A stretch of 64,000 nt of DNA from an uncultured Lachnospiraceae bacterium (lineage in GTDB: Bacteria; Bacillota; Clostridia; Oscillospirales; CAG-272). This document shows positions 6,122 to 59,772 of the stretch, piece after piece. The stretch lies in contig CAZGHD010000001.1 of assembly GCA_964525525.1 (NCBI GenBank), positions 5,288 through 69,287 on the forward strand, read 5' to 3'. The notes under the pieces are model-generated. The model was not told the origin of the DNA and made no database searches. It worked only from the letters and a program-made list of their open reading frames with translations. Position 1 is the stretch's first letter. Each line of letters begins with the position of its first letter. Position numbers and translations under genes: made by a program.

Positions 6122-6628
6122 TTAATTATCGGTATAAAGATTTCCGTCCTCAAAATATTCTTTGTTTACACCGTCAAGCAGGTCAAGATATTCACAGCAT
6201 CTGCGGGAGAGCAGAATATAAAGCATTGTACCGATCTGAATAACGCATACCGAAACGAGCGAAACGAGATAAACCGTGTAAAGTACGCCGCTGCCGATAT
6301 GCGCGCCGCCCTTGAAGTTAAAGTCAAGCCACAGTGCGACAAGGGAATACACGCCGCAAAGCGATCCCAAAATAGCGAAGAATTTCACGCCCTGCGCTAT
6401 CATTACCGCAAACAGCGCGCTGAGGATTACGAGAATGTAGTTCATCAAACAGTCTATACGCATACTCTTAACCGAAGCAACGTAAAAGGTCTGAATCACG
6501 GCGGGAAGGATACGGAGCACTACGAAAGAAATGAGAAGAATGAACATCACTCTTTCGGTGCGCTGCATTTCCGGGCTTTTTTCAAGCTGGGAGTCAATAA
6601 GCGCCGCCTTTTCTTTTCTTGATCTCAT
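6122..6628 (-). CDS. Integral membrane protein, unknown function (about 4 TM)
   Basis: Hydrophobic helices in the translation. The opposite-strand ORF 6104..6622 is Lys/Arg/Asn-rich and looks like a shadow ORF. Confidence 0.6.
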   Translation of the reverse strand: MRSRKEKAALIDSQLEKSPEMQRTERVMFILLISFVVLRILPAVIQTFYVASVKSMRIDCLMNYILVILSALFAVMIAQGVKFFAILGSLCGVYSLVALWLDFNFKGGAHIGSGVLYTVYLVSLVSVCVIQIGTMLYILLSRRCCEYLDLLDGVNKEYFEDGNLYTDN

Positions 6629-6660
6629 ATTCCTCCTCCTTTCTGCCGAGATGAGTAAAA

Positions 6661-6891
6661 TCAGTTAATACGTCCGAAAAAGTAGAGCAATGCGACCGCG
6701 ATACCTGCCACGCTGTAAGTGCAGACTATTACGTCAAGCAATAATACGATCGACGAAACGTAAGGGATAGCGGAAGCGCAGCCGCCGATTATCGCGACGA
6801 AAATAGGTATGAAGAGATACGCCAGTATAATCAAAACAAGGAAAAATACGTTACGAGCTTTATAGCTAACGGGGAAAAGTTCTTCAAGCAT
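6661..6891 (-). CDS. Small membrane protein (2 TM), unknown function
   Basis: 76 aa with two long hydrophobic segments, 32 nt upstream of the next same-strand gene. Confidence 0.5.
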   Translation of the reverse strand: MLEELFPVSYKARNVFFLVLIILAYLFIPIFVAIIGGCASAIPYVSSIVLLLDVIVCTYSVAGIAVALLYFFGRIN

Positions 6892-6982
6892 GACCGCGTC
6901 TCCAATCCTTTTGTTTGTTACAGTATAACACCAATATGTGTCGAATGTGTGTATTTTTTAATAAATCAAAGTGTGCGAAACG

Positions 6983-7573
6983 TTATTTCTTTTTTCGCTC
7001 TGCCGCCGTAAAATCCCAATCGGACAGCTCGTCGTCTGTGACGAGGAAGGCTTTTTTGGATATTTTCGCGAGCGGTGTGTCTGAATACGAGTCTGAATAG
7101 AACTCGTCTATCTCCGCATTGCCAAACTCTTCTCTGAAGCGGGCTACCTTTTCTTCTCCGTAGCAGTTTTCGCCGGTGTATTTGCCGCTTTTTTTGTCAA
7201 CACGGGAAGCGATAAGATGTTTTATTCCGAGCGCATCGCACGCGGGGCGCAGTAAAAATTCGGGCGAGGCGGAGATTACCACGTCATCCTCTCGGTGGAT
7301 GTCTTTATAGAGCTGTTTTACGTCGTCCATATTACCGCGCCAGAATTCGGCAACGTATGCGTCTATATCCTTGATGCCGCGGAAAAATCGGTAAAAACGC
7401 TCCTTAAAAGCGGTCTTTTTTATAAAACCGAGCGTGAATCTCGCAAAGTGAAATCCCTGCGCGGGCAGATACCTTAACAGCAGAGGATTTTTTCTGATAC
7501 AGAAAAAGTAAAATTTAGCTGTGCTGTCGTGATATGAAATGGTTTTGTCAAAATCGTATACGTTCAAAATCAA
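6983..7573 (-). CDS. HAD-superfamily hydrolase, subfamily IB-like
   Basis: N-terminal DFDKT nucleophile motif (MILNVYDFDKTI) and a C-terminal SDSYSD motif. Confidence 0.75.
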   Translation of the reverse strand: MILNVYDFDKTISYHDSTAKFYFFCIRKNPLLLRYLPAQGFHFARFTLGFIKKTAFKERFYRFFRGIKDIDAYVAEFWRGNMDDVKQLYKDIHREDDVVISASPEFLLRPACDALGIKHLIASRVDKKSGKYTGENCYGEEKVARFREEFGNAEIDEFYSDSYSDTPLAKISKKAFLVTDDELSDWDFTAAERKKK

Positions 7574-7590
7574 GCTCCTTGAAAATTAAT

Positions 7591-9594
7591 TTAACTTCCT
7601 TGAGTACTTACCCGGCTGATTATGTGATCCTGCATTTCGGTGCAGAGATCGACGAATCTCGCGCTGTAACCCCAGACACGGACGATCAGATCGGCGTGAG
7701 AGTCGGGATCTTTTTGCGCCGCTTTGAGTTCTTCTACGTCGTAGGCGGCGATGTTGAACATCGAAAGTCCTTTTTCGATTCCGGCATCAACCAGGGTTTC
7801 CATTACAGTCATTTGCTGTTCTCTTGGGAGATTGAGCATTTTCGGAATGGAGATATGTACCGCCGCAACTCCGAATGCGCGGCCGAGATCAGCCTTGCCA
7901 ATGGAGTTAATAAGTGCCGTCGGACCGTTTAACGCGCGGCCGGGAGTAGCGCAGTAATGCTCGGCTATGGGATCCTTCCACTTGCGTCCGTCAGGCGTTG
8001 CCCAGGTGCCGTAAGCCTCCTGCAAAAACAGCCAGCCGACAAGCGACGGCCATATCAGGATACCGTTATCGCGGCTGAATTCTTCAAGCCAGTCGCAGAA
8101 ATTTTTCGCAATATCTGCGGCGATAAGATCGACCTCGTCAATATCGTTTCCGAATTTAGGTGCGGCAAGAAGGGCAGAGCGAATCTCGTCGTGTCCTTCA
8201 AAGTTTGCCGCGAGAGCATCCATAACCTCGGTCATCGTGTATTTTTTGTCGTCGTAAACGACCTTTTTGATAGCCGCTATCCCGTCAGCGACGGTGGGGA
8301 TAGAGCCGGAGAATATCTGATAACACTCAACCGGCATTCCGCGAATCATATCGCGTCCGCTGTCAAGCACGAAATCAAACGTACCGTTTAAGATAAACGA
8401 GCCGTGTTCTTTTACTCTGTATTCGTGGCGTAATTTAAGGCCTTCACAGCATTGGAGCGCCTGATATTTGTATTGCGAGAGAAATACGTTATAGAATTCA
8501 TCAAAGGTTTTGCATTCGGTGACGTCTCCGCTTTCAAATCCGAGAGATGCGTCGGGGCGATGTATTGACGGCTGATTGTCTTTGTGCCAGTATCGAACGC
8601 CTTGATCTTCCGGGCGGTCAAACAATTTACCGTTGTTCATAGTGATCTCAAGAGTGGATACTGCGTCTATATGATCGAAGTTTATCATACTTCCGCCGTC
8701 GATAATTATCTCGGTACATCCGTCGTTTGTGTAACGGCAAGCCCAATTTTCTGGGATTCCCGCTTTAACGAGCGCAGGGATGATTATCTCGTCGTTATAT
8801 ACCGTTGCCTGGCCGTGTCCGAGGAGCTGAACTTCAAACGCTTTTTCTCTCAGTTCGGCAGGCATATTTTTGTGGAAACGCACGTTCATATGAGGCTCGG
8901 GCATTTTTACGCGGCGGGTAGCCTCAAGCATAAGAACAGAAAGGCGGTTTGACGCATCGCTTCCGTCCTCGTTTCTTCCGCCGACCATCACGTTGATAAG
9001 AGTATCTCCTGTACCGCAGGTGTTAAGACGCTCCCAAAGATCGCAAAGAATATCCTGCGCTTCGTCTTCGGTGATAATGCCGTTTTTCACGTCGTTCTCG
9101 TAAAAACCGCCGAGCGCGACGTCAAGACGGCCGATGCACGAGGTACCGAACACGTTACGCAGACGCCACATAAGATAGAAAAGCTGTACCGCTTGTTCAA
9201 AGGTTTCGGGCTTTCCATCGGCTATTGCCGCCATATTTTTACGCATACGCAGAAGTCGCGCGTCGTCACTGTTCGTGATCATTTCGTCTAACTGCGCGAC
9301 CGTCCTTTTGAAAAAATCTGCTATCTCAAGATACACCTCGCCGAGAAGAGTGAGAAATTCCTTTTCTTCTTCGCCCGCGCTTTCCGCGTTTTTGAACGCC
9401 TTTTCGGCGATGCCTTTAACTCCGTATTTATAAAACGCATCGCCCATAGGGAAGTGGAGGTTATCGTTAGGACCGAAATACACGGGATGCCCGTGCATCG
9501 GAATGCCGACGATGCACCCCTTTTCGGGAATTTCAGCGATGATGGCGCGTGTCAGCGCATTACAGTCTCTTGCTATATCTTGGTAAGCTGACAT
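7591..9594 (-). CDS. Glycyl radical enzyme (PFL-like fold), short 667-aa form, eliminase-type Cys loop
   Basis: C-terminal glycyl radical motif RVWGYSARF (Gly codon at 7669-7671). Cys loop NDGCTEI (Cys codon at 8716-8718). Other conserved GRE blocks are IGRLD, ATPDGR and GPTALINS. Confidence 0.85.
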   Translation of the reverse strand: MSAYQDIARDCNALTRAIIAEIPEKGCIVGIPMHGHPVYFGPNDNLHFPMGDAFYKYGVKGIAEKAFKNAESAGEEEKEFLTLLGEVYLEIADFFKRTVAQLDEMITNSDDARLLRMRKNMAAIADGKPETFEQAVQLFYLMWRLRNVFGTSCIGRLDVALGGFYENDVKNGIITEDEAQDILCDLWERLNTCGTGDTLINVMVGGRNEDGSDASNRLSVLMLEATRRVKMPEPHMNVRFHKNMPAELREKAFEVQLLGHGQATVYNDEIIIPALVKAGIPENWACRYTNDGCTEIIIDGGSMINFDHIDAVSTLEITMNNGKLFDRPEDQGVRYWHKDNQPSIHRPDASLGFESGDVTECKTFDEFYNVFLSQYKYQALQCCEGLKLRHEYRVKEHGSFILNGTFDFVLDSGRDMIRGMPVECYQIFSGSIPTVADGIAAIKKVVYDDKKYTMTEVMDALAANFEGHDEIRSALLAAPKFGNDIDEVDLIAADIAKNFCDWLEEFSRDNGILIWPSLVGWLFLQEAYGTWATPDGRKWKDPIAEHYCATPGRALNGPTALINSIGKADLGRAFGVAAVHISIPKMLNLPREQQMTVMETLVDAGIEKGLSMFNIAAYDVEELKAAQKDPDSHADLIVRVWGYSARFVDLCTEMQDHIISRVSTQGS

Positions 9595-9628
9595 AATAGT
9601 CCCTTCCTTTACAAGCGGTTAATGGTGA

Positions 9629-10303
9629 TTACAGCAGTTTTTCAAGCTCGTTAAGCGATTTGATCTCGTAGTCGGGTACCGTGTCTTTGCAGTCAGCACC
9701 GTGCGGATTAAACCACACGGTGACAATTCCCGCGTTCTTTCCGCCTTTAATATCGGACGAAAGACTGTCTCCGATTATCAAAGATTCCTCGCGTTTGAAA
9801 TCTTCTATATTCTCAAAACAGAAATCAAAAAATTCCGCGCTCGGCTTGGTGTGCCCTATTTCCTGCGAGATGAATATGCCGTCAAAATATTTTGCAATAT
9901 CCGCGCATTTTATTCTGCTGCGCTGTACGTGCGAGTGTCCGTTTGATACGACGTACATACGGTACTTGCCGCAAAGTCTGTTTAACAGGTCAATCGCGCC
10001 GTCGATGAAAAAGCACTCAAGAGACAGCTTGCTCTCGTAGTATTCTCCCGCCGCGCGAGGATCTCTGTCCACGCCTATCGCCTCAAAGAAAAGGCTGTAT
10101 CTGCGTAGTCTTACCTCGTCGCGGGTGAGTTTGCCGAGCTCAAGCAGTTTCCACTGCTCGGCGTTGATACGGCTGTACGTAGATATGTTTTCATCGGTAG
10201 GCTCAATGTCCAGGTGAATGAGAGTTTTGGTGAGCGCCGCACGCTCGGATTTTTTGAAATCGAGCAGGGTGTCGTCAAGATCGAAAAGAATGTTTTTTAT
10301 CAT
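9629..10303 (-). CDS. HAD-IA hydrolase (YjjG-like nucleotidase/phosphatase)
   Basis: DLDDTLLDF motif I, VVSNG motif II, GDSLSSD motif IV. Confidence 0.8.
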   Translation of the reverse strand: MIKNILFDLDDTLLDFKKSERAALTKTLIHLDIEPTDENISTYSRINAEQWKLLELGKLTRDEVRLRRYSLFFEAIGVDRDPRAAGEYYESKLSLECFFIDGAIDLLNRLCGKYRMYVVSNGHSHVQRSRIKCADIAKYFDGIFISQEIGHTKPSAEFFDFCFENIEDFKREESLIIGDSLSSDIKGGKNAGIVTVWFNPHGADCKDTVPDYEIKSLNELEKLL

Positions 10304-11049
10304 CAGAGTGCGTTCGCTTCCTTGATTTTAAGATATTCCGCGAAGTATCTGTGTCCGAACTCGCGCAGAGATACCGAGTTGAAATGGATCCCGTCTTCCT
10401 TGAGTGTAAGATCCTCGGCACTTACAACGGCGCAAAGCGGAAGCTCTGCCGCTATCTCTGCAAAAATGCCGTTCATACGGAAAAACTTATTAAGATCGTA
10501 CTTTTCGGGATCGCGGGTAGTAGCGAGCTCGCCGATAAGCACCGGCACGTTCTGCGCGCCGAGCTGTTCTCTCATCTCGGTCATCATACGGATAAAGCGC
10601 TCTTTGTAGGTCGGCCACGATTCGTCACGTCCGCAGTCAGCCTCACCCTGATGCCAGATTATGCATTTGAGTTCGGACGTGCGCTTAGCAAGCTTGGTCA
10701 TAGCTACCGCGTGATCGAAAAGGAGCTCGCCCGGCATCCACTGTTCAAGTCTCGTGCCGCCGTCAGCGCACGGGATAAGTCCGACCGGCGCGTTTATGTG
10801 GTTGGCAAAATCGTCCGCAAAGCTTGCCGCAAGGCTGATACCGCTTTTATACTTGCCTACGAACATTGATCTGTCGGTATTTATCGGCTCGCGCATACGC
10901 TGCCATCTTGCCATACGGAGCATATAGCAGTTTTCGTTTTCTATCGGCTCAACGTCGCCTATATCTCCTCTGCCCGCCATGTTTGACTGGCCTATCATAA
11001 GTACGCTACTGACAAGTTTGTCAACACTGTTAAGTCCGTCGTTTATCAT
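10303..11049 (-). CDS. SASA/DUF303-type SGNH esterase (sialate O-acetylesterase-like)
   Basis: GQSNMAGRG nucleophile block near the N-terminus. Its stop overlaps the downstream HAD start as ATGA. Confidence 0.7.
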   Translation of the reverse strand: MINDGLNSVDKLVSSVLMIGQSNMAGRGDIGDVEPIENENCYMLRMARWQRMREPINTDRSMFVGKYKSGISLAASFADDFANHINAPVGLIPCADGGTRLEQWMPGELLFDHAVAMTKLAKRTSELKCIIWHQGEADCGRDESWPTYKERFIRMMTEMREQLGAQNVPVLIGELATTRDPEKYDLNKFFRMNGIFAEIAAELPLCAVVSAEDLTLKEDGIHFNSVSLREFGHRYFAEYLKIKEANAL

Positions 11050-11054
11050 TTCTG

Positions 11055-11867
11055 TTATTTCCTTTCGGGAATTATAAATTTATCGCTTTCCTTGAGTCCC
11101 AGTTCGTCACGTATCAGCTCAAATCTTGCTTTTGCTATCGCGAGCGTGGCAGGCTTATGCGCGTCACTGCCGAAATAGAATTTTGCGCCGCACTCTTTTG
11201 CTATCCTGTACGGGCGGAGCATACGCTCTCTTTCCTCGGGAGTGTGGGTCTCGTAGCCTCCGATGTTAAGCTCAACGCCTACGCCCTTTTTTGCTATTTT
11301 GCCGAACAGATATTTGTACGTATCGTCCTCTATCATATCGTAAAAGGTTATTTCGTCCATGTCAAGTCCGCGTTTGCCGAGGCTGCAGGTAATATGTGCG
11401 ATACCCATCTTTTCAAAAGGAAGATCCATATCAAGCAGCTTGTCAATACGGTTTACGTAAGTTTCTTTTCTTACCTCTACCGAGTCGTATCCCTCTTCCG
11501 ATATGGTAAACCCTCGCATATGCATATGGGTCGTAGAGATGATTATAAAGTCGAATTTATCCATCGTCTCGGGGCGGATACCCAAGTTCATATCCTTGTC
11601 GAGGTCTGTCTCGCAGCCGAAAAGCAGTTTTACATTTTCACTCTGCGGAAGCGGTAGCCAGGAGGATACGTGCTCGAAATCCTGTCCGGGATAAAATCCC
11701 GATTCGTTATAAAACGGGCCGTCCCACATATGGTCGGTCAGACAGAGAGTGGTGAATCCGTTTTCTTCTCCGTATTTGAGAATGTTTTCAGGGGTCTGAT
11801 CTTTGTTCTTCGAGCAATAGGAGAGCTGCGTGTGAATGTGGAAGTCGTGGTCGATTACGTATTTCAT
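11055..11867 (-). CDS. PHP-domain metal-dependent phosphoesterase
   Basis: DFHIHTQLSYCS motif and a later GSDAH motif. Start moved to the internal ATG at 11867 (RBS AAGGAAAAA), because the longer ORF start at 11945 overlaps the upstream gene. Confidence 0.75.
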   Translation of the reverse strand: MKYVIDHDFHIHTQLSYCSKNKDQTPENILKYGEENGFTTLCLTDHMWDGPFYNESGFYPGQDFEHVSSWLPLPQSENVKLLFGCETDLDKDMNLGIRPETMDKFDFIIISTTHMHMRGFTISEEGYDSVEVRKETYVNRIDKLLDMDLPFEKMGIAHITCSLGKRGLDMDEITFYDMIEDDTYKYLFGKIAKKGVGVELNIGGYETHTPEERERMLRPYRIAKECGAKFYFGSDAHKPATLAIAKARFELIRDELGLKESDKFIIPERK

Positions 11868-11883
11868 ATCTGTTTTTCCTTGA

Positions 11884-12726
11884 TTACGCTTCTTTCGGAT
11901 AAGCCTTGTAAAGATGTACGATGTTGAGGTCTTCGGGCATATCAAGTCCGTGAGAGCCGCAGCCGCCGTCTATTTCGTGGCAGCCGTGATCCATCGCAAA
12001 GCCGACGAGAGTATCGTGGCTCTTCCAGTATCTTTCTATAAGCACGCTGAACTCACCGAATGCGGCTGAATTTGCCTTCAGCTCGGAAAGAGCGTGATGA
12101 TGCTCGGGGCCGACTTTGTGCATTCTTGAGTCGAAATTTCCGTTGTAAACTACGATAAAGTCGTACTTATCTTCTATTATTGTCTGAACGACTTTTGCGT
12201 TTGCTTCTTCGATGGTGTTGTATACGAAGTAGTCCATGTTGCGCTCAAGGAATATTTTTGCAAGGCTGCAACCCACCTCCTGCGCGATGATAACGCATTT
12301 TTTACCTGCGCGGATGAGCGCGTCAAATATAGTGTCTATCGTGATAACGGGCTTGGTGTATTTTCTGATGCCGTGAACTTCCGGCTGAGCTCCGGTGTAC
12401 ATAGTGCCGAAGCAAACGGGAGTTACCGACGGCATAACGGTACGGAAGGGAAGCTCAATATCGGTGCGCTCTATCGCCTCACGCATAAGGTGAGGATAGG
12501 TGCGGTATACCCACTCGCCGATAGCGTCGGGATTGTACATAAAAATTCTGTCTGCTTTTCTGCCCTCGAACATACGGTCAACGTATTCGACCAGCTTCTC
12601 TGAGGGGTCTGCCGCGAACTCAGGGCGGTCAACGCCGATTGCGTAGGCAAGTGCGGCGCACAGAGTATCAAGAGAGTTTTCGTTAAGTGTATCTTTTACA
12701 GTGGTGTTGAATTCTTCGAGATTCAT
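11884..12726 (-). CDS. Alkaline-phosphatase-superfamily protein (nucleotide pyrophosphatase/phosphodiesterase-like)
   Basis: MPSVTPVCFGTMYTGAQPEVHGI resembles the NPP nucleophile block. C-terminal metal-ligand-like DHGCHE..GSHG. Confidence 0.55.
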   Translation of the reverse strand: MNLEEFNTTVKDTLNENSLDTLCAALAYAIGVDRPEFAADPSEKLVEYVDRMFEGRKADRIFMYNPDAIGEWVYRTYPHLMREAIERTDIELPFRTVMPSVTPVCFGTMYTGAQPEVHGIRKYTKPVITIDTIFDALIRAGKKCVIIAQEVGCSLAKIFLERNMDYFVYNTIEEANAKVVQTIIEDKYDFIVVYNGNFDSRMHKVGPEHHHALSELKANSAAFGEFSVLIERYWKSHDTLVGFAMDHGCHEIDGGCGSHGLDMPEDLNIVHLYKAYPKEA

Positions 12727-12744
12727 TTTTTATCTCCTTGTTTG

Positions 12745-13566
12745 CTAAAAATTTATTTTATGAGGTTTTCTTCTTTCGTAGTAATAATATCCGTCAAAAC
12801 CGAGTTCCTTTAGCCTCTCTGATGCGGTTTTGAAATTACGCGCGATGTCTTTTGATGAATGAGCGTCGCTTCCGACGGTTATCTTTTCTCCGCCGAGGGC
12901 TCTGTAACGCGCGAGAATATCGTAGTCGGGAATCGCGTGCATCTCGCCGTCCTCTGCTACAAGTCCGTGAGTATTTACTTCAAGCGAGATTCCGCGTTCT
13001 ATAATACGGCGCAGTATTTTTTCTATCTTGTCGTCAAGACGGGATACGTCAAATCCCATACCGTACTTTCCGTTTATATATCTGAGCGGGCAGGTAAGAT
13101 GTGCGAACGAGTCCATATCGCTTTTGTCGATGTTGTCATAAGCCTGATCAAAATACAGCCCGAGATATTCCTCAATCTCGCCATCCGTCATCTTGTCAAA
13201 CTCCATATGGGCGTATGCGCGGGTGGTACCGTCCCGATAGTCAACGTGATGTATCGCGCCGAGGATGAAGTCAAATTCGGTCAGCGACAGCAGTATCTCC
13301 GCATAATCCAGGCGAAACAAATATTCACCCAGCTCTATTCCGCAGAGAATTTTTATCCTGTCACCGTACTTTTCGCGCGCGGCAGCAACGTCCGAGATAA
13401 GCGAAACTATTCTCGGATGAATTCCGCTTGTTATGTACGTGTGAGTATTTGCGTGGTCGGTTATCGCGACTCCGCGCAGTCCCAGGTCGATGGCGGTCTC
13501 GCATATTTCGCTGACAGTTTGCTTACCGTCAACCGAATTGTTTGAATGTATGTGGCTGTCAAACAT
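12745..13566 (-). CDS. PHP-domain histidinol-phosphatase-family protein
   Basis: MFDSHIHSNNSVDG start, then AITDH and GSDAHS motifs. Confidence 0.8.
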   Translation of the reverse strand: MFDSHIHSNNSVDGKQTVSEICETAIDLGLRGVAITDHANTHTYITSGIHPRIVSLISDVAAAREKYGDRIKILCGIELGEYLFRLDYAEILLSLTEFDFILGAIHHVDYRDGTTRAYAHMEFDKMTDGEIEEYLGLYFDQAYDNIDKSDMDSFAHLTCPLRYINGKYGMGFDVSRLDDKIEKILRRIIERGISLEVNTHGLVAEDGEMHAIPDYDILARYRALGGEKITVGSDAHSSKDIARNFKTASERLKELGFDGYYYYERRKPHKINF

Positions 13567-15189
13567 TTATTTGTTGCGTTCCTTGTGATTTTTTACAGTT
13601 TGTGAGATCAAGTTATAGTCGTTTGTCAGAATGGTATCTATCCCCATGTCAAGGAAATGCTCGGCTTCCTCCGGATCATCGGACCAGAATACGTTGCATA
13701 TGATTCCATGTTCGTGCGCCTTGTCTATCATTGCTTGATTGAAACACGGCTTAAATAATTGGAGCTTTTTGCATTCGTATTTTATTGCGCGTTCAACTAT
13801 ACCCCACTTGTCCTTTCCGCCTCCGCAACAGCGTACAATATCGGGAGCGACCTCGCGCATAAGAGCGAGGAGATTATCGTTTCCGCTCATAAAATAAACG
13901 TATTTTTCACAGTCGTATTTGCGTATCAGTGCGACTATCTTTTGGAGTGTCGTACGATCGTATTCCACATCGTTGTTTACGGTTTTTACGTGAATATTCA
14001 TGATCGTGTGGCAGGCAAATTTCTTTAGTATATCTTCGAAACGGAGTATCTTGAGACCTTTGAATTTTTCTCCGCGCTTTACGCCGAAGTCGTATTGAAA
14101 AAGCTCCTCATAGGTGTATTCGTATACTTTACCCGTACCGTCTGAAACACGGTCAAGAGTTGCATCGTGCAGAGATACAATCTCACCGTCTTTTGTATAC
14201 CAGAGGTCAAATTCTATCTCCTCTGCTCCGAGCGCGATTGCCGCGCCGAATGCGGGCATACTGTTCTCGGGCGCTACGGTGTTGAAACCGCGGTGAGCGC
14301 ACACGCGGGGATATTCCATCAGCCCGTCGTGCTTTACTATTGCGCTTCCGGCGGGACGGTATTTATAGGGACGGCGTCCTTTTTCAATATATTCGTAATG
14401 TGCTGACGGCGGATTACCGAACCCTGCCGGTTTAAAGTATTTATCTTTTATGTTTATTTCTACAGTTTCGATACCGACGCGGCTACCCATGCTCATAAGT
14501 ATCTTTCCGTCAGGAGACGCAACCAGGCTCGCTCCGCCGATGTCTGATGACTCGTCCATTGAGACCGACGAACGGAGAACATATGCATTCGTGTTGTAAG
14601 CAAGGAACGCGCTCATTAGCTCAAGTGCGCGGTGTGTATCACTGCGCTGATGTGAGCATCCGATGATAACGTCCACGTTCATTCTTGCTATATTCGGAAA
14701 CATCTCGTAAAAATAGAAGTCATAGCAGGTGAGAAATGCGAATCTGATTCCTTCCATTTCTACGACATAAGGCTCGGAATGTTCAAACGAGTATCCGCTG
14801 TCAAGCTGAATGTTCGAAACCTCACCCGGTGTAAGGTGCTGTTTGTCGTACCTGCCGACTATCTCGCCGTCTCGGTTTATCGCGTAGGTGGTGTTGCGGC
14901 GCGAGTCTCCGTGATAACTCGATGCATTTATAAACAGCATAGCGTTGCATCTTTTTGCAGTAGCACGAGCCGTATCAAGCAGCTTTTTGTTGTACTTTTC
15001 CGCGCTTGCGTCTGCGTCTTTCTTGGTCTTCGCAAGGCAAGGAACGTCGCATGACTCGGGACAAACTATAATATCTGCGGTTTCGTCACACTGTTCAAAT
15101 AGTTCAAACTCTTTTTCAAAATATTCGTCTGACAGAGAATAATCTGTTGAATATTTAGGCTGAATGATAAACACCTTCAAAGCAATCAC
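13567..15189 (-). CDS. Fusion protein: N-terminal carbon-nitrogen hydrolase (nitrilase superfamily) and C-terminal glycerophosphodiester phosphodiesterase (GDPD)
   Basis: The N-terminal half shows the CN-hydrolase pattern (..ADIIVCPE.., ..FLTCYD..). The C-terminal half has VCAHRGFNTVAPENSMPAF..EIEFDLWYTKDGEIVSLHD, typical of GDPD. The exact start is uncertain: the GTG at 15189 abuts the RBS, and TTG/GTG codons 9-15 nt downstream are more likely. Confidence 0.8.
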   Translation of the reverse strand: MIALKVFIIQPKYSTDYSLSDEYFEKEFELFEQCDETADIIVCPESCDVPCLAKTKKDADASAEKYNKKLLDTARATAKRCNAMLFINASSYHGDSRRNTTYAINRDGEIVGRYDKQHLTPGEVSNIQLDSGYSFEHSEPYVVEMEGIRFAFLTCYDFYFYEMFPNIARMNVDVIIGCSHQRSDTHRALELMSAFLAYNTNAYVLRSSVSMDESSDIGGASLVASPDGKILMSMGSRVGIETVEINIKDKYFKPAGFGNPPSAHYEYIEKGRRPYKYRPAGSAIVKHDGLMEYPRVCAHRGFNTVAPENSMPAFGAAIALGAEEIEFDLWYTKDGEIVSLHDATLDRVSDGTGKVYEYTYEELFQYDFGVKRGEKFKGLKILRFEDILKKFACHTIMNIHVKTVNNDVEYDRTTLQKIVALIRKYDCEKYVYFMSGNDNLLALMREVAPDIVRCCGGGKDKWGIVERAIKYECKKLQLFKPCFNQAMIDKAHEHGIICNVFWSDDPEEAEHFLDMGIDTILTNDYNLISQTVKNHKERNK

Positions 15190-15201
15190 CTCTTACGTTA
15201 A

Positions 15202-15230
15202 ATTATATCACTTTATAAGATTTATTGCAA
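15202..15230 (-). promoter_or_regulatory. Near-consensus sigma-A promoter for the 15.2-to-7.0 kb operon
   Basis: On the minus strand: TTGCAA, a 17-nt spacer, then TATAAT. It lies just downstream of a terminator and about 15 nt upstream of the RBS. Confidence 0.55.
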
Positions 15231-15234
15231 GTAA

Positions 15235-15258
15235 AAAAGGGAGGCTTACCTCCCTTTT
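15235..15258 (-). terminator. Intrinsic terminator after the alpha/beta hydrolase gene
   Basis: 10-bp stem AAAAGGGAGG/CCTCCCTTTT with a 4-nt loop. A T-run follows on the minus strand. Confidence 0.65.
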
Positions 15259-15268
15259 ATAAAGTAAA

Positions 15269-16270
15269 TTATTTAAAAAGCTCGTCAAACACCGGCCACG
15301 AGAGGTCGGCGTAAAATCTGTGTCCCTCGGGACCTACTACCTGACGGCACGCGTCGGGTGCACCTGCGGCGGCGTAGATGGGCTTAACTACCTCCTCAAA
15401 GCCACGGCGTGCGGAATCAATATCCGCAATCGCGTCAGATAGACCCGAAACTATTATAAGCGGTCTCGGTGCGATTGTTATCGCAATATCCGGCAAGTCA
15501 AACCACTTGAGAAAATCCGGAATAAATCCGCATACGCAGTGGTTGTATTTTAAGAAAGAAGTTTTGAACTCTCCGAAAAAGCAGGACGGCATAACCGTAG
15601 TAACTCGTGTGTCCATACACGCAACGTAATATGAGGTAGTACCTCCCGCAGAGTTACCCATAAGTCCGAGTCGGCTGTGGTCAAGGCAGTCAAACTCCGC
15701 GATAGCGTCGATAAGGCGGGATACGTCGAAAACTCTCTCTCCGAGCAGAGTGCGTCCTACCGCAAGAGCCTGCATCGCGGGCATATTACACATACGGTTG
15801 CTCGGTATGTCAGACGTTTGCTCGCCGAATCCGCGCTGTTCCATTATTACCGCCGCGTATCCGCGAGAGACAGCCTGAATCGCAAAATCGCGGTCGCCTT
15901 TTACCTCTGCGGTCTCTTTTGAACCTATTTCGGTGCGTGCAAGGGAAACGTGCATTCCCGCGGTGTGGCCCTGAAGGCAGATGACGGCAGGAGTACGCTC
16001 GCCGCGGTTTTTCGGGAGAATGAGATGCGCGGGAACGAAGAAATCCGGCTCGCTTTCAAATTTGAATCTTATCTCATCGTATCTCGGGTCACTTGAGTCC
16101 TCCCATTCGATAATGGGCGTAGGATTTGTAAGTTTTCGCGGCATTCTGAGCAGTTCGCACAGCTTTTCGCGCACGGCGGTCTGCTGAACGGCAAAATCTT
16201 TTTTCGGATTGTACGCAAGCACAGGCTTCATATTTTCCGCGATTGACATTTTAAGCTCGCTTATGTTCAT
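15269..16270 (-). CDS. Alpha/beta hydrolase (esterase-like)
   Basis: GNSAGG nucleophile elbow, with downstream Asp and His candidates. No signal peptide. Confidence 0.7.
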   Translation of the reverse strand: MNISELKMSIAENMKPVLAYNPKKDFAVQQTAVREKLCELLRMPRKLTNPTPIIEWEDSSDPRYDEIRFKFESEPDFFVPAHLILPKNRGERTPAVICLQGHTAGMHVSLARTEIGSKETAEVKGDRDFAIQAVSRGYAAVIMEQRGFGEQTSDIPSNRMCNMPAMQALAVGRTLLGERVFDVSRLIDAIAEFDCLDHSRLGLMGNSAGGTTSYYVACMDTRVTTVMPSCFFGEFKTSFLKYNHCVCGFIPDFLKWFDLPDIAITIAPRPLIIVSGLSDAIADIDSARRGFEEVVKPIYAAAGAPDACRQVVGPEGHRFYADLSWPVFDELFK

Positions 16271-16291
16271 TTTTTCTCTCCTTTTGGCTTT

Positions 16292-17644
16292 TTATTTACA
16301 GATTATTTCGCCGATGCTTCCGGCGGCGGTGGACGGCATATCGTCAAACAGGTGATCGAAAACGATCTCTCTGACGTACGGGGTAACGTCAGAGACACGC
16401 TCTCCGTTTACCGTAATGCCCTCGAAATACACTTTCTCGGTGTGAGATGAGAAATACGGGTCAAATATCTGCATATCCCCGTCGCGCACAGATTTCGGTC
16501 CTATGCACATAAGGTATGAGTAGGGATATTCGTCACGGTGGAGAATAAGGTCAATGTTCTTAAAATATATGTTCTTTGCGTTAAGTCCCAGCTCAAACGC
16601 GGCAATACTGCCGGCAATAGGATCGCTCTCAAGATACTCTCGCAGGAGATCTACAGGTCTGTTCAGGTCTACCTTTATGTCTTCGAAAATGATGTTGTTT
16701 CCGCTTCCGACCGAGACCTTTTCCGGCTTCTCGCCTACGCGGTATGCGGGGGCCTGGCAGTAGAGCTTGAAGGTGCTGACGTTCTCGATCCTTCTGAATA
16801 TGGCGTCCTCTATATAGCAGTCAACCTCACTGCCGTCGTCGTAAGTATAGATGCCCGGCTGGATTCTGATAGCGGGATAACCTTTGGTGAGGAAAAGATC
16901 CTCGCAGATTACCGTCTTTGCGGGGCCGAAGTTGACAGACGAGTTCTGCCAGTCAAACATATTGAAAGCTACAAGATCGTCCCCGACCTCGCCGCGGATA
17001 TTCTTGACGAACACGTTTTCCACGTTTCCGTTTATGTGCAGACCGTCCGCAAAGCAGGTGTCAAAAATTATGTTTTGCATATTAAGGTCGGTCGCGTCTC
17101 CGCACTGAACGGCAAATCCCGCGCAGTTTTTGAAGGTCATGTTCTTTAAGGTCAGGTGATCCATGTTATCAAAGAAGAACAGGGTGGAAACACCGAAAAA
17201 ACTGCGATCCTCGTCGTACATTCCGCTCTTACCGTAGCCGAGTCGGGTGGTCTGGCAGTCTGCCCAGATACCGCCTTCTATCGTGATGTTAGCATCTCTT
17301 ACGTCCGAGACTATCGGCGCGTGGGTTCCATCGTAGGTGTGCTCGTTACGGAACATAATGACTTTAGTGCTGTCAGCGAGGCGGATAAGTGCATCCTTGT
17401 CCGCAATTATTCGACGGTTTGAGGGAATAACAACCGTTCTGTCAATGAGGTAAGGCGTTTCTTTTGCGGGAATTATTACTACCTCGTGCTCGCGCAGAGC
17501 CGCTTCAAGCGCCTCCGTCCATATATCGCCGTTTGGCGCGTAGTCGGTCAGTTTAACTTCGTGTGAGAGCGTCTGAGCGAGTTTTTCGTTTCTTTTTATC
17601 ATGTCAGAGAGGGTTGATTCGATCTGCTTTTTGATGTTTTCCAT
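16292..17644 (-). CDS. Right-handed beta-helix (pectate-lyase-superfamily / GH28-like) protein, cytoplasmic
   Basis: N-terminal LTDYAPNGDIWTEALEAAL is like the Pectate_lyase_3 start. Repetitive N/G/D-rich coil pattern. No signal peptide. Confidence 0.55.
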   Translation of the reverse strand: MENIKKQIESTLSDMIKRNEKLAQTLSHEVKLTDYAPNGDIWTEALEAALREHEVVIIPAKETPYLIDRTVVIPSNRRIIADKDALIRLADSTKVIMFRNEHTYDGTHAPIVSDVRDANITIEGGIWADCQTTRLGYGKSGMYDEDRSFFGVSTLFFFDNMDHLTLKNMTFKNCAGFAVQCGDATDLNMQNIIFDTCFADGLHINGNVENVFVKNIRGEVGDDLVAFNMFDWQNSSVNFGPAKTVICEDLFLTKGYPAIRIQPGIYTYDDGSEVDCYIEDAIFRRIENVSTFKLYCQAPAYRVGEKPEKVSVGSGNNIIFEDIKVDLNRPVDLLREYLESDPIAGSIAAFELGLNAKNIYFKNIDLILHRDEYPYSYLMCIGPKSVRDGDMQIFDPYFSSHTEKVYFEGITVNGERVSDVTPYVREIVFDHLFDDMPSTAAGSIGEIICK

Positions 17645-17722
17645 AGCAATCTCCGATCGTATATTTTAATAAGCTTCACCGACGATTATAACACAACGCA
17701 CCGTCTCTGTCAAGAATAAGAA

Positions 17723-17749
17723 AAGGCTTTCTTTAGTAAAGAAAACCTT
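17723..17749 (-). terminator. Intrinsic terminator after the serpin gene
   Basis: Imperfect 12-bp hairpin AAGGCTTTCTTTA/TAAAGAAAACCTT, followed on the minus strand by a T-rich tract. Confidence 0.5.
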
Positions 17750-17764
17750 GATTCTATATTTTTG

Positions 17765-19024
17765 TCAGCCTATCTCTGTTACTGCGCCGATAAATATCGG
17801 GAGGGAGGTTGCGTTATCCACTATCGCATAAACGAACGGGCGGTCCAGCACTACTCTTTTTGTCTCTGCCATGGCGCCGTCCCGCATCTCCACTATGGTA
17901 GCCGCGCCTGCGCGGGTGCCGAGCTCATCAACCGAGATAAAAGTTTTGTGACGCACGTCGCCTATAAAGATGTTACCGCGGGAGGAACTGCCGAGCTTTG
18001 TGAAGTCAGCCGCGTTTCCGTCAAATGCGGTGGGCATTCCGAGGTCTTTGAGGATGTCACAGAGCGAAATGTCATAGTCGTATGAAAACTTTGGCAGGGA
18101 GGCGGAAAGATACGAATGTTCGGCGTTTTGAATAAGAGAAATAAACTTGTCGCCGTCAAGATTTTTGATATAGTCGTATATGTCAATTCCTTCGTTTGGT
18201 AAGAACGCTGCAAAGCTGTATTTACCGCCTTCGTAGTTCTTTATAAAACCAGTAGTTTGATCGTCGTGAATGTATGTTGATTCACCTGAGGTCATCATTT
18301 TTACTTTCTGCTTTTCGCCGTTATACGCAGTAAACGTTCCGTTTTGAATATCGTTTTTCTCGTACGTTTTCTGCCACTCGGCGTCAAACGTTACCGCGTT
18401 GATAAGATACATTACCGCGTATTCGTCTATTTCGTCAAGGATCTTATCTATCATTCCGTCGGTGTTGTTTTTTACCCAGTTGTTTATATCCTTTAAGGTC
18501 TGACGGTCAAACGGAGCTTTATACGCGTCGGCAGAGTAGTAGTCCGCATTTTTTTGAAGGAACTCTTTTTCTACCGTGAGTCTGTTCTCGTCATCACGGA
18601 ACCATATCGAGTTTGCTATCTCGAGCTTGTATTTTTCTTCACTGGGTAGATTTTTTACGTAGGAGTGAAGATATTCGTTCAGCTCTCCTATCGTTTTTTC
18701 GCCGCCGAGCAGGGCTTCCATTTCTTGCTTTGTCTGACCGTCTGCTCCGTTTGCCGTCATGGCGAGGGCGAGGATAACCGACAGAGGAGACACGAGCAGA
18801 CTTTCGGTTTCTCCGTTTGCTTTGCTTTCCGCGGCAGACGCTTTGAAAAGTTCTAAATACAGCTTTGCCTGCTGTGAAATGAAGTCACTGTCTGCAGCTT
18901 TTTCGGTGACGTTTTCGGGAGTTATGCCCTCCATCAGGTCAGCTGCTTGAACCTTGGTGCATCCGACGAGGTTAAGCGGCATTACAAGCGCGAGTAAAAG
19001 GCAGATCAACGTGATCGGTTTCAT
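17765..19024 (-). CDS. Serpin (serine protease inhibitor), lipoprotein
   Basis: Lipobox LVGC. Serpin blocks SPLSVILALAMTANGADGQT and NWV..T.G.I. Hinge/RCL region DELGTRAGAATIVEMRDGA..LDRPF. Confidence 0.85.
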   Translation of the reverse strand: MKPITLICLLLALVMPLNLVGCTKVQAADLMEGITPENVTEKAADSDFISQQAKLYLELFKASAAESKANGETESLLVSPLSVILALAMTANGADGQTKQEMEALLGGEKTIGELNEYLHSYVKNLPSEEKYKLEIANSIWFRDDENRLTVEKEFLQKNADYYSADAYKAPFDRQTLKDINNWVKNNTDGMIDKILDEIDEYAVMYLINAVTFDAEWQKTYEKNDIQNGTFTAYNGEKQKVKMMTSGESTYIHDDQTTGFIKNYEGGKYSFAAFLPNEGIDIYDYIKNLDGDKFISLIQNAEHSYLSASLPKFSYDYDISLCDILKDLGMPTAFDGNAADFTKLGSSSRGNIFIGDVRHKTFISVDELGTRAGAATIVEMRDGAMAETKRVVLDRPFVYAIVDNATSLPIFIGAVTEIG

Positions 19025-19040
19025 TGTTTTTCCTCCTTGA

Positions 19041-20063
19041 TTAGAATATTCCGGGGATAAGATGCGAGATCATAAGTCCGCCTGCAAAGGAAACGGTGTT
19101 TGCCACGAGAGCGTACAGCACGGTGATACCGCGATTTATCCTCTTGCGGCTGAATTTTTGCATAAATCTGAAGTACAGCACCGCCTCTACTGCAAAGACT
19201 ATTATTTCAAAAAGAATATAGCTTAGAACAAACGCAAGCTCTCCGCTTTGATAATTTATAACGTTGAGAAGTACGTTGAGCAGTACCTGCGTTACGGCGT
19301 TTACGCATACGATAAAGACGAGCTGTTTTCGCGTGACATATCCGAACATCAGCGCTATAAGTATCTCTATTGCGAGGGTGAGCAGTATGCGCGAGACGAG
19401 CGATATGATCTCAAGGGTGAAGTCGTAGTCCTTTTTCACCGTGAGCTGCTCCGACTCGGTCGGCTGTACGTTCAGAGTGACGTCTGCACTTTCGGATTCA
19501 GGCGGAGCAGTGTCGGGCGTGTCTGTTGTTTCAGACGAGGTAGTTTCGGTAGTGTCTGCGGAGTTTGAAACGCTTGACAGATCGGTCAGGCTGAGGTCAA
19601 CGCTGAAATAACTGTCAAACGCGTATCTCTCGCATACTCCGCTTGAGACAAATTTTCCGCTCTCGGGAAAGTAGAGCAGAATTTTGAATTTCTGCGGAGG
19701 GTAGTAGGTCCAGTTTATCTGCCCGGTTTCGCTTACCTTCCAGCCTTCCTGTAGAAAATAAAATCCGTCGGGATCCTCATACTCTGCGAACGCTTTCCAC
19801 GTCTTGTAGTCGAGAGAGGAATATGAGTAATGCTCATTTTCATTATGTCGGGCGTTTTCTTCTTTGCCGTCCCACACGGTGGCAGGCCCAGTTGATTCTT
19901 TGTACGAGAGCAGGGTGCCCCAGCACTCACCGTCATCGAGGTGCTGAAATTTTACAACGACCGACGGCTTGGGGCCTGTATCGGCACTCGCAGTGACAGA
20001 AAGCGCGGAAATAAAGAGTGATACGATGATTATAAAAGCAAGTGTTTTACGCATATCTACCAC
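19041..20063 (-). CDS. Membrane protein: signal peptide, extracytoplasmic domain, T/S/E-rich linker, C-terminal multi-TM block
   Basis: Read from the translation. The gene lies between the anti-sigma-like gene and the serpin gene, with gaps of 7 and 16 nt. Confidence 0.55.
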   Translation of the reverse strand: MVDMRKTLAFIIIVSLFISALSVTASADTGPKPSVVVKFQHLDDGECWGTLLSYKESTGPATVWDGKEENARHNENEHYSYSSLDYKTWKAFAEYEDPDGFYFLQEGWKVSETGQINWTYYPPQKFKILLYFPESGKFVSSGVCERYAFDSYFSVDLSLTDLSSVSNSADTTETTSSETTDTPDTAPPESESADVTLNVQPTESEQLTVKKDYDFTLEIISLVSRILLTLAIEILIALMFGYVTRKQLVFIVCVNAVTQVLLNVLLNVINYQSGELAFVLSYILFEIIVFAVEAVLYFRFMQKFSRKRINRGITVLYALVANTVSFAGGLMISHLIPGIF

Positions 20064-20070
20064 CTCTGTA

Positions 20071-20763
20071 TCAGTATTTTTTGATTCCGAGCGTTTCTTT
20101 TAGCAGCTCAAACTGTTCCTCGTTTATAGGATATGATTTACCGTTTGCCAGAAATATGATGCTGTTTTTGGTGACCGCGTATCTCCATTCAAGCCCGAAG
20201 TTAGTGGTCAGTACTACCTTGAAGTCGTATTTCGGAATAGTGGTGTGCGGTATTTGAACGACGTTACCGTCAAAACCGTAGATGGTTGCCTCTCCGTTCG
20301 TAAACTCGTCTATCAGGTTTACTGTTTCTGTTATTTCATTTGTGTCACGATGGACGGATACCGTTCCGTTCGGTGCGTACACCTCAAACTGCACATAGCG
20401 TATGCCTGAGCTTGAGGGTACTTCGTCTTTGCCGTCACCGTCAGTGTCTGGAGCTACTGCAGGAGCGCCGGTTTCTCCGGCGGCATCGCTGTCGTTACCG
20501 TCCGTTTTTTCTCCCTCGGGTTGTCTGAGCGTCTCTCCTATCTCCTGGTCAAACGAGCCGTCGTCGCCTCTTATAGCCCCGGGCGGTGCGCTGTCGTGCG
20601 ACGGACGCATCACTACGTTAAAATACGCTCCCGCGAAAAACGTGCACAAAACTATGGGGGTAACTATAACGGCAATATTTGTTTTTATCTTTCTTTTTCT
20701 CTCTTTTATGCGCTCCTCGCTTCGGCGGTATACCTCCGCTCGGCGCTCATCGAAATTTCTCAT
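20071..20763 (-). CDS. Putative anti-sigma factor (single-pass membrane protein)
   Basis: Short basic cytoplasmic N-terminus, one TM (IAVIVTPIVLCTFFAGAYF), then an extracytoplasmic domain. Its start overlaps the sigma gene stop as ATGA. Confidence 0.5.
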   Translation of the reverse strand: MRNFDERRAEVYRRSEERIKERKRKIKTNIAVIVTPIVLCTFFAGAYFNVVMRPSHDSAPPGAIRGDDGSFDQEIGETLRQPEGEKTDGNDSDAAGETGAPAVAPDTDGDGKDEVPSSSGIRYVQFEVYAPNGTVSVHRDTNEITETVNLIDEFTNGEATIYGFDGNVVQIPHTTIPKYDFKVVLTTNFGLEWRYAVTKNSIIFLANGKSYPINEEQFELLKETLGIKKY

Positions 20764-59707: not shown

Positions 59708-59772
59708 AAAATATCGGGTTAAGGTGTCTGTGTCATAAAATCTATTGGTAAATTATTCTTTGGAGACAGAAA

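Follow-up and report, generated by a model that had tools for sequence, protein, structure and literature searches.

An eight-gene operon in a 64,000-nucleotide stretch of chromosome from an uncultured Lachnospiraceae bacterium (contig CAZGHD010000001.1 of GenBank assembly GCA_964525525.1, positions 5,288 to 69,287; hereafter the window) is a lineage-specific mosaic, not a conserved functional unit: a closely related locus in a sister species has six of the eight genes and lacks the other two, one for a glycyl radical enzyme (GRE), g7, the other for an amidase-GDPD fusion, g1. Judged by sequence, g7 belongs to an uncharacterised and structurally unusual clade of short GREs, whose members are typically found with genes of sugar and polyol metabolism and with a radical-generating activase, partners that are absent from the whole window. 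The locus is probably best seen as a lineage-specific mosaic operon carrying an orphan GRE 1,2-eliminase of the sugar/polyol type, in the genome of an uncultured member of the Clostridia of the gut or rumen kind. An earlier note on this DNA had assigned domains to the eight genes in order, and Pfam agrees with each assignment. In order of transcription the genes are:

13567..15189, minus strand: g1, CN_hydrolase (amidase) and GDPD fusion, 537-540 aa (Pfam CN_hydrolase 4e-19; GDPD, PF03009, 1.4e-31)
12745..13566, minus strand: g2, HisJ-family PHP phosphoesterase (Pfam PHP 4e-23; TIGR01856, 111.5 against a cut-off of 90.2 bits); its start abuts the g1 stop, and it is the first gene of the six-gene core
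11884..12726, minus strand: g3, small alkaline-phosphatase-superfamily (NPP-like) protein (Pfam Phosphodiest 5e-9, a small part of the profile being matched)
11055..11867, minus strand: g4, second PHP-domain phosphoesterase (Pfam PHP 1e-9)
10303..11049, minus strand: g5, SASA-type carbohydrate esterase (Pfam SASA 1.9e-51)
9629..10303, minus strand: g6, HAD-IA protein, YjjG-family non-canonical pyrimidine nucleotidase (Pfam HAD_2 2e-21)
7591..9594, minus strand: g7, 'short' GRE, 667 aa (Pfam PFL-like, PF02901, 6.2e-89; Gly_radical, PF01228, 2.9e-14)
6983..7573, minus strand: g8, HAD-IB family phosphatase (Pfam HAD 6e-25; NCBIfam HAD-IB)

A sister locus with neither GRE nor fusion

Relatives of g3 at 90% identity or above exist, and one of these is encoded on L071, a contig of 51 kb in synteny with window positions 1-24000 (72-82% nucleotide identity). 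The flanks are shared: on one side both loci have a gene for an ECF sigma factor, a serpin gene and two unknown genes, and on the other Big_2, GH77 and ABC permease genes. The operon between them has six genes in L071, encoding PHP, AlkP-like, PHP, SASA, HAD-IA and HAD-IB proteins, with no GRE and no fusion; directly ahead of its first PHP gene stand a terminator and a TTGACA-17-TATAAT promoter of its own. Only two indels separate the loci. One (window 7589-9643) consists of the GRE gene alone with its own ribosome-binding site (RBS), lying exactly between the HAD-IA stop codon and the RBS and TTG start of HAD-IB; in L071 this RBS and TTG are conserved and follow directly upon HAD-IA. The other (window 13595-17774) comprises the g1 fusion, an Abhydrolase_7 gene and a GH28-like gene. 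Both pieces are compositionally native, codon usage of the GRE gene included, and no repeats or mobile-element traces were found at the indel junctions; recent horizontal gain of either piece was accordingly set aside. A look-up with the GRE returned no record; a 3.3-kb Logan contig carrying HAD-IA proved 100% identical to the window and, being from the same source, was not counted as independent.

The six-gene core is itself lineage-specific. We considered whether it might be a widely conserved operon, and rejected this on the placement of g3 homologues elsewhere: the g3 family is very large and highly conserved (3590 hits, at 65-75% identity over many Clostridia), and its members are found beside a purple acid phosphatase or, often, between NrdR/MnmE and HolA/ComEC/RecJ/RelA (L155/L156), the latter placement suggesting that the family is an unrecognised housekeeping phosphoesterase.

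A clade of short glycyl radical enzymes

The GRE lacks about 120 N-terminal residues. Its Pfam match begins at profile position 166, and its phmmer alignments to PDB entries begin at target residues ~180-300, those of the family profile at ~163-300 (non-duplicated chains); the N-terminal helices thereby missing form the conserved dimer interface of GREs (PMC13450708 section 4.1). Shortness is a trait of the family, whose members have 660-700 aa as against 780-850 aa for typical GREs. The catalytic loops are nonetheless in place: the Cys loop reads NDGC293TE295 (Cys-x-Glu), in which C293, aligned to Cys433 of glycerol dehydratase (GDH), does not vary among 25 family members, and the whole C293-T-E295 motif is invariant in the family; the Gly loop reads RVWG642YSARF, with R639, V640, W641 and G642 likewise invariant.

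Identity of g7 to any characterised GRE is 21-30%, the best PDB match being glycerol dehydratase (3.8e-59, ~30% identity, from query residue ~94 and target residue ~218). An AlphaFold2 model built on the 25 family members (pLDDT 91.8, pTM 0.92) gives Foldseek TM scores of ~0.80-0.82, at 21-27% identity, to glycerol dehydratase, propanediol dehydratase, IseG, HpsG, CutC and others, so that the catalytic 10-stranded beta/alpha barrel is predicted to be complete and the protein is roughly equidistant from all characterised eliminases and isomerases. The protein goes unnamed in annotation because it scores below every NCBIfam GRE cut-off: 260 against 678 bits for PFL2-3 (TIGR01774), 214 against 1050 for CutC (TIGR04394), 216 against 1100 for HypD (NF043068), and 230 and 232, each against 1000, for HpsG and HpfG (NF048011 and NF048009). 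The earlier note had counted placement of the GRE in a characterised family with an unrelated substrate as evidence against its proposal, and g7 falls outside every characterised family.

Searches gathered more than 120 family clusters of 660-700 aa at 42-56% identity, almost all of them unnamed. Their signatures are an invariant DNxH near the position of GDH His164, the RVWG Gly loop, an insertion of ~20 residues after the Cys loop, and IAEH[YF]CATPG in place of the usual (D/E)G(I/V)SP. H235, H546 and R146 are likewise particular to the family and are candidates for the lining of an anion pocket. The clade matches none of the enzymes in the June 2026 review of GREs, which treats GD, PD, HpfG, HypD, HpyG, HpzG, CutC, IslA/IseG and HpsG together with the isomerases HplG, YbiW and PflD (PMC13450708), and a search of the literature on GREs in combination with glycerophosphodiester, FGGY, DERA, xylulokinase, polyols, GH32 and anhydroglucitol found no description of it. 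The Cys-x-Glu loop had been taken to mark g7 as a 1,2-eliminase. The loop is indeed present, and the same motif occurs in the isomerases HplG, YbiW and PflD (PMC13450708); by itself, therefore, it is no proof of an eliminase.

Family contexts point to sugars and polyols

The neighbourhoods of short GREs were surveyed at 65 loci, 60 of them from species-representative genomes and the rest reached through protein look-ups, with searches for homologues of all window-operon and partner genes. An activase accompanies the GRE at 48 of the 65, an Fe-type alcohol dehydrogenase (Fe-ADH) at 22, the aldolase DeoC at 19 and an FGGY kinase at 17. Homologues of PHP (either type), AlkP-like, HAD-IA and HAD-IB proteins occur at none of the 65. 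The earlier note had itself named the lack of linkage between GRE homologues and GDPD, PHP and HAD genes in other genomes as telling against its proposal, and for most of these genes such a lack is what the survey found.

The closest relatives of g7 (P0002, P0005 and P0016, at 53-56% identity) each lie in a module of GntR, FGGY, GRE, (activase), DeoC and Fe-ADH genes, and kinase, aldolase, alcohol dehydrogenase and activase are all present beside the GRE in L066, L067 and L069, which are the closest loci. The L067 aldolase is a DeoC equivalog (184 bits, cut-off 117), its kinase is matched best by XylB (321 bits, cut-off 380), and its activase matches TIGR02494. In a neighbour-joining tree g7 is sister to the L066 enzyme, inside the kinase/DeoC clade, and motifs close to the active site are common to g7, L066, L067 and L010.

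A more distant sister clade, at 36-45% identity, includes GREs of Clostridium zeae, C. oryzae, Clostridium sp. KNHs205 and Eisenbergiella tayi. GH32 genes are found at 19 of its 22 loci and GH172 genes at 11, along with PfkB and ABC transporter genes, which hints at a radical step in the catabolism of fructan-related sugars; L066 bridges the kinase/DeoC and GH32/GH172 contexts. Taken together, the gene contexts point away from phospholipid headgroups and towards a carbohydrate or polyol theme for the family as a whole.

Some further observations on these loci may be recorded. Short GREs of the sister clade stand with their activase among GH32, GH172, PfkB and ABC-transporter genes at L024, L035, L046, L063 and 15 other loci. 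Seven loci (L001, at 13960-16101, L008, L009, L019, L023, L057 and L058) have a second, divergent short GRE of ~713 aa in the same operon, with one activase; such paired short GREs in kinase/DeoC loci resemble the isomer-specific pairs YbiW/PflD and HpyG/HpzG. Short GREs are also present in metagenome-assembled genomes of Planctomycetota, Latescibacterota, Victivallales and Sumerlaeia (L029, L030, L032, L033, L036, L038, L039, L055, L062), and no activase was found within 10 kb of the GRE at any of 10 non-Firmicute loci.

An intact enzyme away from its partners

The canonical module of GntR, FGGY, GRE, activase, DeoC and Fe-ADH genes is not found beside the window GRE. Scanning of the 64 kb for the CxxxCxxC motif, and phmmer with the family activase, revealed no activase, and no homologues of Fe-ADH, FGGY kinase, DeoC or Metallophos were detected in the same stretch. 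Activases are usually specific to their partners and dependent on the Gly loop (PMC13450708 section 2.5). The enzyme is intact all the same: its reading frame is complete, none of the family-invariant residues has been lost, and there are 6 deviations, all conservative, at 129 near-invariant positions, where activase-linked members show 0-16. Other intact orphans are scattered through the clade, beside a GH4 gene (L014), beside a two-component regulator (L015), between rpoC and a G5/3D protein gene (L016), and with a GH88 gene to one side and an MFS transporter gene to the other (L017); position alone therefore implies no functional tie between such a GRE and its neighbours.

A proposed explanation

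In the explanation that we favour, the core of the operon is a set of six cytoplasmic hydrolase genes (HisJ-type PHP, AlkP-like, PHP, SASA esterase, YjjG-type HAD and HAD-IB) that is self-standing in the sister species, and the window lineage is distinguished by two accessory pieces, the block of fusion, GH28-like and alpha/beta-hydrolase genes and the single GRE gene. The GRE gene would be transcribed together with the phosphoesterase genes from a promoter at 15230, and its product would rely on other parts of the genome for its activase and for the enzymes that act after it. As to the reaction of the family, the combination of a conserved module (XylB-like kinase, DeoC equivalog, Fe-ADH and activase) with established diol-dehydratase chemistry leads us to propose a radical 1,2-elimination, that is a dehydration, at the vicinal diol that terminates a polyol, a sugar or the phosphate of either. 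In GRE diol dehydratases hydrogen is abstracted at C1 of the vicinal diol, the C2 hydroxyl is lost and an aldehyde is formed (PMC13450708 section 5.6). The product here would be a 2-deoxy-aldose or its phosphate, which DeoC would split into acetaldehyde and a phospho-aldehyde, the acetaldehyde then being reduced by the alcohol dehydrogenase. It is possible that the fusion would supply the GRE by releasing glycerol, a polyol or a polyol phosphate.

Several considerations weigh against this explanation. The proposed reaction is read wholly from gene context, and the kinase, aldolase and alcohol dehydrogenase could act on a product unrelated to the one proposed. The GH32-linked clade does without DeoC and FGGY, so that a single reaction common to the family may not be given. 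The GRE gene is set tightly between two HAD genes, with an RBS of its own and no internal promoter or terminator, an arrangement that suggests selection for co-expression; and the fusion shares its pattern of presence and absence with the GRE in the window and L071, and elsewhere directly adjoins short GREs of three subfamilies, so that part of the operon may after all feed the GRE. Finally, a single sister locus was compared, and the accessory pieces may have been gained in the window or lost in L071.

A broader extension of the explanation is more tentative, and we regard it as doubtful: that the short GREs form a new functional class of polyol or polyol-phosphate dehydratases feeding DeoC (for example D-ribitol-5-P or D-arabitol-5-P to 2-deoxyribose-5-P), which would provide gut and rumen Clostridia with an anaerobic route for pentitols, alditol phosphates or fructan sugars; phosphodiester polymers or lipids would be the source of glycerol or alditol phosphates, which in loci such as the present one the fusion and phosphatases would supply or process.

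The amidase-GDPD fusion as a possible partner of short GREs

Of all the operon neighbours of the GRE, the fusion alone has been linked repeatedly in evolution with short GREs. Both active sites of g1 are intact: the amidase triad of the CN_hydrolase/nitrilase superfamily (E45, K116, C155), and, in the GDPD domain, the motifs AHRGF, EIEFD and SLHD, which hold the His-Arg pair, the metal-binding Glu/Asp and the second His-Asp. In two other species (L004/L005 and L006) a fusion of this kind lies beside a short GRE that is 51% identical to g7, the layout being [MBL-fold protein, Metallophos, Fe-ADH] facing [GRE, activase, CN_hydrolase-GDPD]; the fusion is present twice in L004. Scanning of metagenomes with the fusion brought up 237 relatives, abundant in rumen and gut samples. 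Among the 34 fusion loci of at least 6 kb, a GRE directly adjoins the fusion in three (L121, L124 and L132), with an activase homologue detected nearby; these GREs are short (670-709 aa), only 25-26% identical to g7, and keep CWE and RVxGW. Adjacency of fusion and GRE thus recurs in at least three short-GRE subfamilies, and on a rough estimate random gene pairs would be immediate neighbours in 0.1% of cases or fewer, a rate that 3 of 34 exceeds by far. The GRE is absent from the remaining 31, and the contexts of the fusion vary widely. As regards the linkage of GREs to GDPD, PHP and HAD genes in other genomes, it is therefore the GDPD part that stands, at L004/L005, L006 and the three loci just named, and the PHP and HAD parts that fall.

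These data bear on the possibility that fusion and GRE operate as a two-gene pair, in which the fusion acts on a glycerophosphodiester that is N-acylated or bears an amide, freeing a polyol, glycerol or polyol phosphate for dehydration by the GRE, the six core genes being bystanders or downstream phosphatases. The presence of both genes in the window and the absence of both from L071 would fit such a pair, as would the recurrence of fusion, GRE and activase side by side, at L004/L005 and L006 within the family of g7 and at L121, L124 and L132, at a frequency above the random expectation; L004 and L006 also add an Fe-ADH and a Metallophos phosphatase. We nevertheless regard the pair as doubtful, since 31 of the 34 fusion loci, in highly variable contexts, have no GRE; since the GDPD histidines are lost in L004 and L006, so that phosphodiester cleavage is not the shared step there; since the two genes are five genes apart in the window; and since g7 groups with the kinase/DeoC-linked GREs rather than with those of L004 and L006.

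The altered fusions deserve a word of their own. In L004 (8218-9813 and 12927-14447) and L006 (8480-10117) both GDPD catalytic histidines have been lost and the amidase triad is intact, giving what looks like a pseudo-GDPD. As a rule, the idea that the conserved partner of the GRE is an amidase with a dead GDPD domain did not hold: 78 of 83 fusions, that of the window included, keep both active sites, K and C of the amidase triad being invariant in the 83 and E present in 81. Two further candidates for GDPD-linked GRE loci, L033 and L049, were also discarded, the genes being separate and 3-8 kb apart.

Operon layout and the single-pathway proposal

The layout described in the earlier note is confirmed: a terminator (15258-15233) directly precedes the TTGCAA-17-TATAAT promoter (15230-15202), and the eight same-strand genes are tightly packed, with gaps of -1 to 34 nt. 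The signals and adjoining genes are:

15233..15258, minus strand: hairpin and T-run, AAAAGGGAGG-taag-CCTCCCTTTTTT, the intrinsic terminator of Abhydrolase_7, the gene upstream
15202..15230, minus strand: sigma-70-type promoter, TTGCAA (15230-15225), 17-nt spacer, extended -10 TG-TATAAT (15207-15202)
6122..6892, minus strand: two small membrane-protein ORFs (open reading frames) 3' of g8, with no terminator between, kept in L071 as genes of 82 and 168 aa
15269..17644, minus strand: two accessory genes upstream, both within the indel that also holds g1, for an Abhydrolase_7/AXE1-like esterase (15269-16270) and for a beta-helix protein resembling GH28 (16292-17644)

The gene upstream of the operon has its stop codon at 15271-15269. 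The terminator hairpin has a folding energy of -15.9 kcal/mol (z = -2.55), and none of 200 shuffled sequences was as stable. The operon promoter matches the consensus at 10 of 12 positions and has the extended TG (TGnTATAAT); an RBS, AGAGGTGA, follows it. As the GTG at 15189 falls within this RBS, g1 probably starts at the TTG at 15180; the starts of g4 and g8 are probably ATG 11867 and TTG 7567. From g1 to g8 the intergenic gaps are 0, 18, 16 (with g4 starting at ATG 11867), 5, -1 (an ATGA overlap), 34 and 17 nt. No convincing terminator was found 3' of g8, where the two membrane-protein ORFs follow on the same strand, and the transcription unit may therefore be longer than eight genes and include them. 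Ahead of the GH28-like and Abhydrolase_7 genes, upstream of the operon and on the same strand, is a perfect-consensus promoter (17713-17685). A search of window positions 1-24000 against Rfam gave no riboswitch or leader match.

The eight genes had been interpreted as one dedicated pathway, in which the joint action of GDPD, PHP, NPP and HAD enzymes on a glycerophospho- or phospho-headgroup compound would leave a small alcohol for the GRE to dehydrate or cleave. Much about the locus invites this interpretation: the co-directional genes are tightly set behind one promoter, the GDPD domain of g1 is catalytically intact, the GRE has a Cys-x-Glu loop and a fold nearest to the glycerol and propanediol dehydratases, and the linkage of fusion to GRE recurs elsewhere. 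The sister species, however, maintains the six phosphoesterase and esterase genes with neither GRE nor fusion; the PHP, AlkP-like, HAD-IA and HAD-IB genes have no homologues at the 65 short-GRE loci, where the partners are of the sugar/polyol type; g7 groups by sequence with the kinase/DeoC-linked GREs; and the operon includes no activase, aldehyde-handling enzyme or transporter, the activase being missing from the full 64 kb. Nor do the individual hydrolases readily fit. Family g3 is found mostly in housekeeping or other contexts, and g6 passes the equivalog cut-off for the pyrimidine nucleotidase YjjG (TIGR02254, 221.5 against 159.9 bits), at odds with a role as phosphatase of glycerol phosphate. 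We consider the single pathway unlikely.

That g7 is instead a non-functional passenger, a recently stranded remnant with no cognate activase to install its glycyl radical, is very improbable: the window does have no CxxxCxxC radical-SAM ORF or activase homologue, an activase is adjacent at 48 of the 65 family loci, and activases as a rule act on specific partners by way of the Gly loop (PMC13450708 section 2.5), the RVWG loop of this family being an unusual one, but the ORF is full length with its invariant residues kept and those few conservative deviations, its codon usage is native, intact orphans occur also in L014-L017 and the whole non-Firmicute clade, and, 64 kb of the genome being covered, an activase may lie elsewhere.

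Neighbouring features

The window is chromosomal, carrying the genes for IF-2, MetH and FakA. It comes from an uncultured lineage of Clostridia, whose nearest IF-2 relatives, at 84-90% identity, are known from metagenomes only. Three other regions drew attention. An ABC exporter gene pair (594 and 596 aa; 38574-42145, minus strand) has a GC content of 0.36-0.37 and a third-position GC content (GC3) of 0.32-0.39, compared with a window mean GC3 of 0.53, which gives it the look of an island of foreign composition; GC3 is low in the genes at 58775-60516 too. A protein of 865 aa (35843-38440, minus strand) is an unusual sigma-factor fusion, whose first ~190 residues hold regions 2 and 4 of an ECF-type sigma-70 and whose other ~670 residues are without a Pfam match. 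A bacterial serpin gene (Pfam 4e-86) follows an ECF sigma factor and two unknown ORFs at 17765-21311 (minus strand), a block that is conserved at L071 5305-9020.

Significance

Much of the demanding anaerobic chemistry of gut microbiomes is the work of GREs, and the assignment of each further clade (CutC, HypD, IslA, YbiW/PflD) has brought to light a new pathway of relevance to host or diet. The eight-gene architecture, being that of one lineage, is of limited significance by itself; the novel item is the short-GRE family, which has hundreds of members missed by present annotation models and whose conserved kinase/DeoC/alcohol dehydrogenase module predicts a radical route to 2-deoxy-sugar phosphates. 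Were the members indeed a class of polyol dehydratases, they would represent an unrecognised anaerobic catabolic route in gut and rumen Clostridia. Cultured carriers are at hand in Eisenbergiella tayi DSM 26961 (L046), Clostridium zeae CSC2 (L024), C. oryzae DSM 28571 (L063) and Clostridiaceae OM02-2AC (L020), in which the activase gene adjoins that of the short GRE. The locus also sounds a note of caution: the eight-gene 'pathway' is a lineage-specific mosaic, and operon adjacency alone would lead to a wrong prediction of substrate.

Comparison with known systems

The g1 protein resembles GDPDs of the UgpQ/GlpQ type and CN-hydrolases of the Nit/amidase type in that both its Pfam domains score above cut-off and both catalytic sets are intact; it differs in that the two-domain fusion is not a named family, all its NCBIfam hits being below cut-off.

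Choline trimethylamine-lyase, CutC, fed from glycerophosphocholine, would be the known system nearest to the GDPD-then-GRE concept of the earlier note, and CutC is among the best PDB matches of g7 (6e-58). The likeness does not go far: the TIGR04394 score falls below the cut-off (214 against 1050 bits), partners and clade are other, no microcompartment or aldehyde dehydrogenase genes accompany g7, and we found no evidence in it of the choline-binding residues.

In sequence and fold the best matches of g7 are the B12-independent glycerol dehydratase (DhaB1 of C. butyricum, PDB 1R8W/1R9D) and the GRE 1,2-propanediol dehydratase (5I2G, 9RCO), at 3.8e-59 and a TM score of 0.82. With these it shares the Cys-x-Glu loop, the glycyl motif, and the motifs PKFGNDIDEVD and PDGR; moreover the family-invariant H47 (in DNxHYPMG) aligns near the general-acid His164 of glycerol dehydratase. 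Identity is nevertheless low (24-30%), the ~120 N-terminal residues of the dimer interface are missing, and the substrate residues His281/Ser282 of GDH are replaced by Ser152/Cys153 in g7 (family consensus A-x, with Ala at 152). Short GREs further have RVWG and not RVAG, IAEH[YF]CATPG for (D/E)G(I/V)SP, and a 20-residue insertion following the Cys loop, and they are accompanied by a kinase and DeoC instead of by DhaT or a microcompartment.

YbiW and PflD, the C-O lyases of 1,5-anhydroglucitol-6-P and 1,5-anhydromannitol-6-P, have 21-24% identity to g7 and are full length (~765-810 aa). Their aldolase is of the FSA type and yields hydroxyacetone, whereas the DeoC equivalog of short-GRE loci implies a 2-deoxy-aldose phosphate and acetaldehyde, and the window, unlike the loci of its relatives, is itself without these partner genes. 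On the side of likeness, YbiW and PflD have the Cys-x-Glu motif and crystallise without the canonical dimer. In the 'anhydroglycolysis' that they serve, the GRE converts a phosphorylated sugar derivative to a deoxy-sugar phosphate, which an aldolase then cleaves to triose phosphate and a small carbonyl compound (PMC13450708), and this logic of a GRE followed by an aldolase is that of the canonical module of the short-GRE family.

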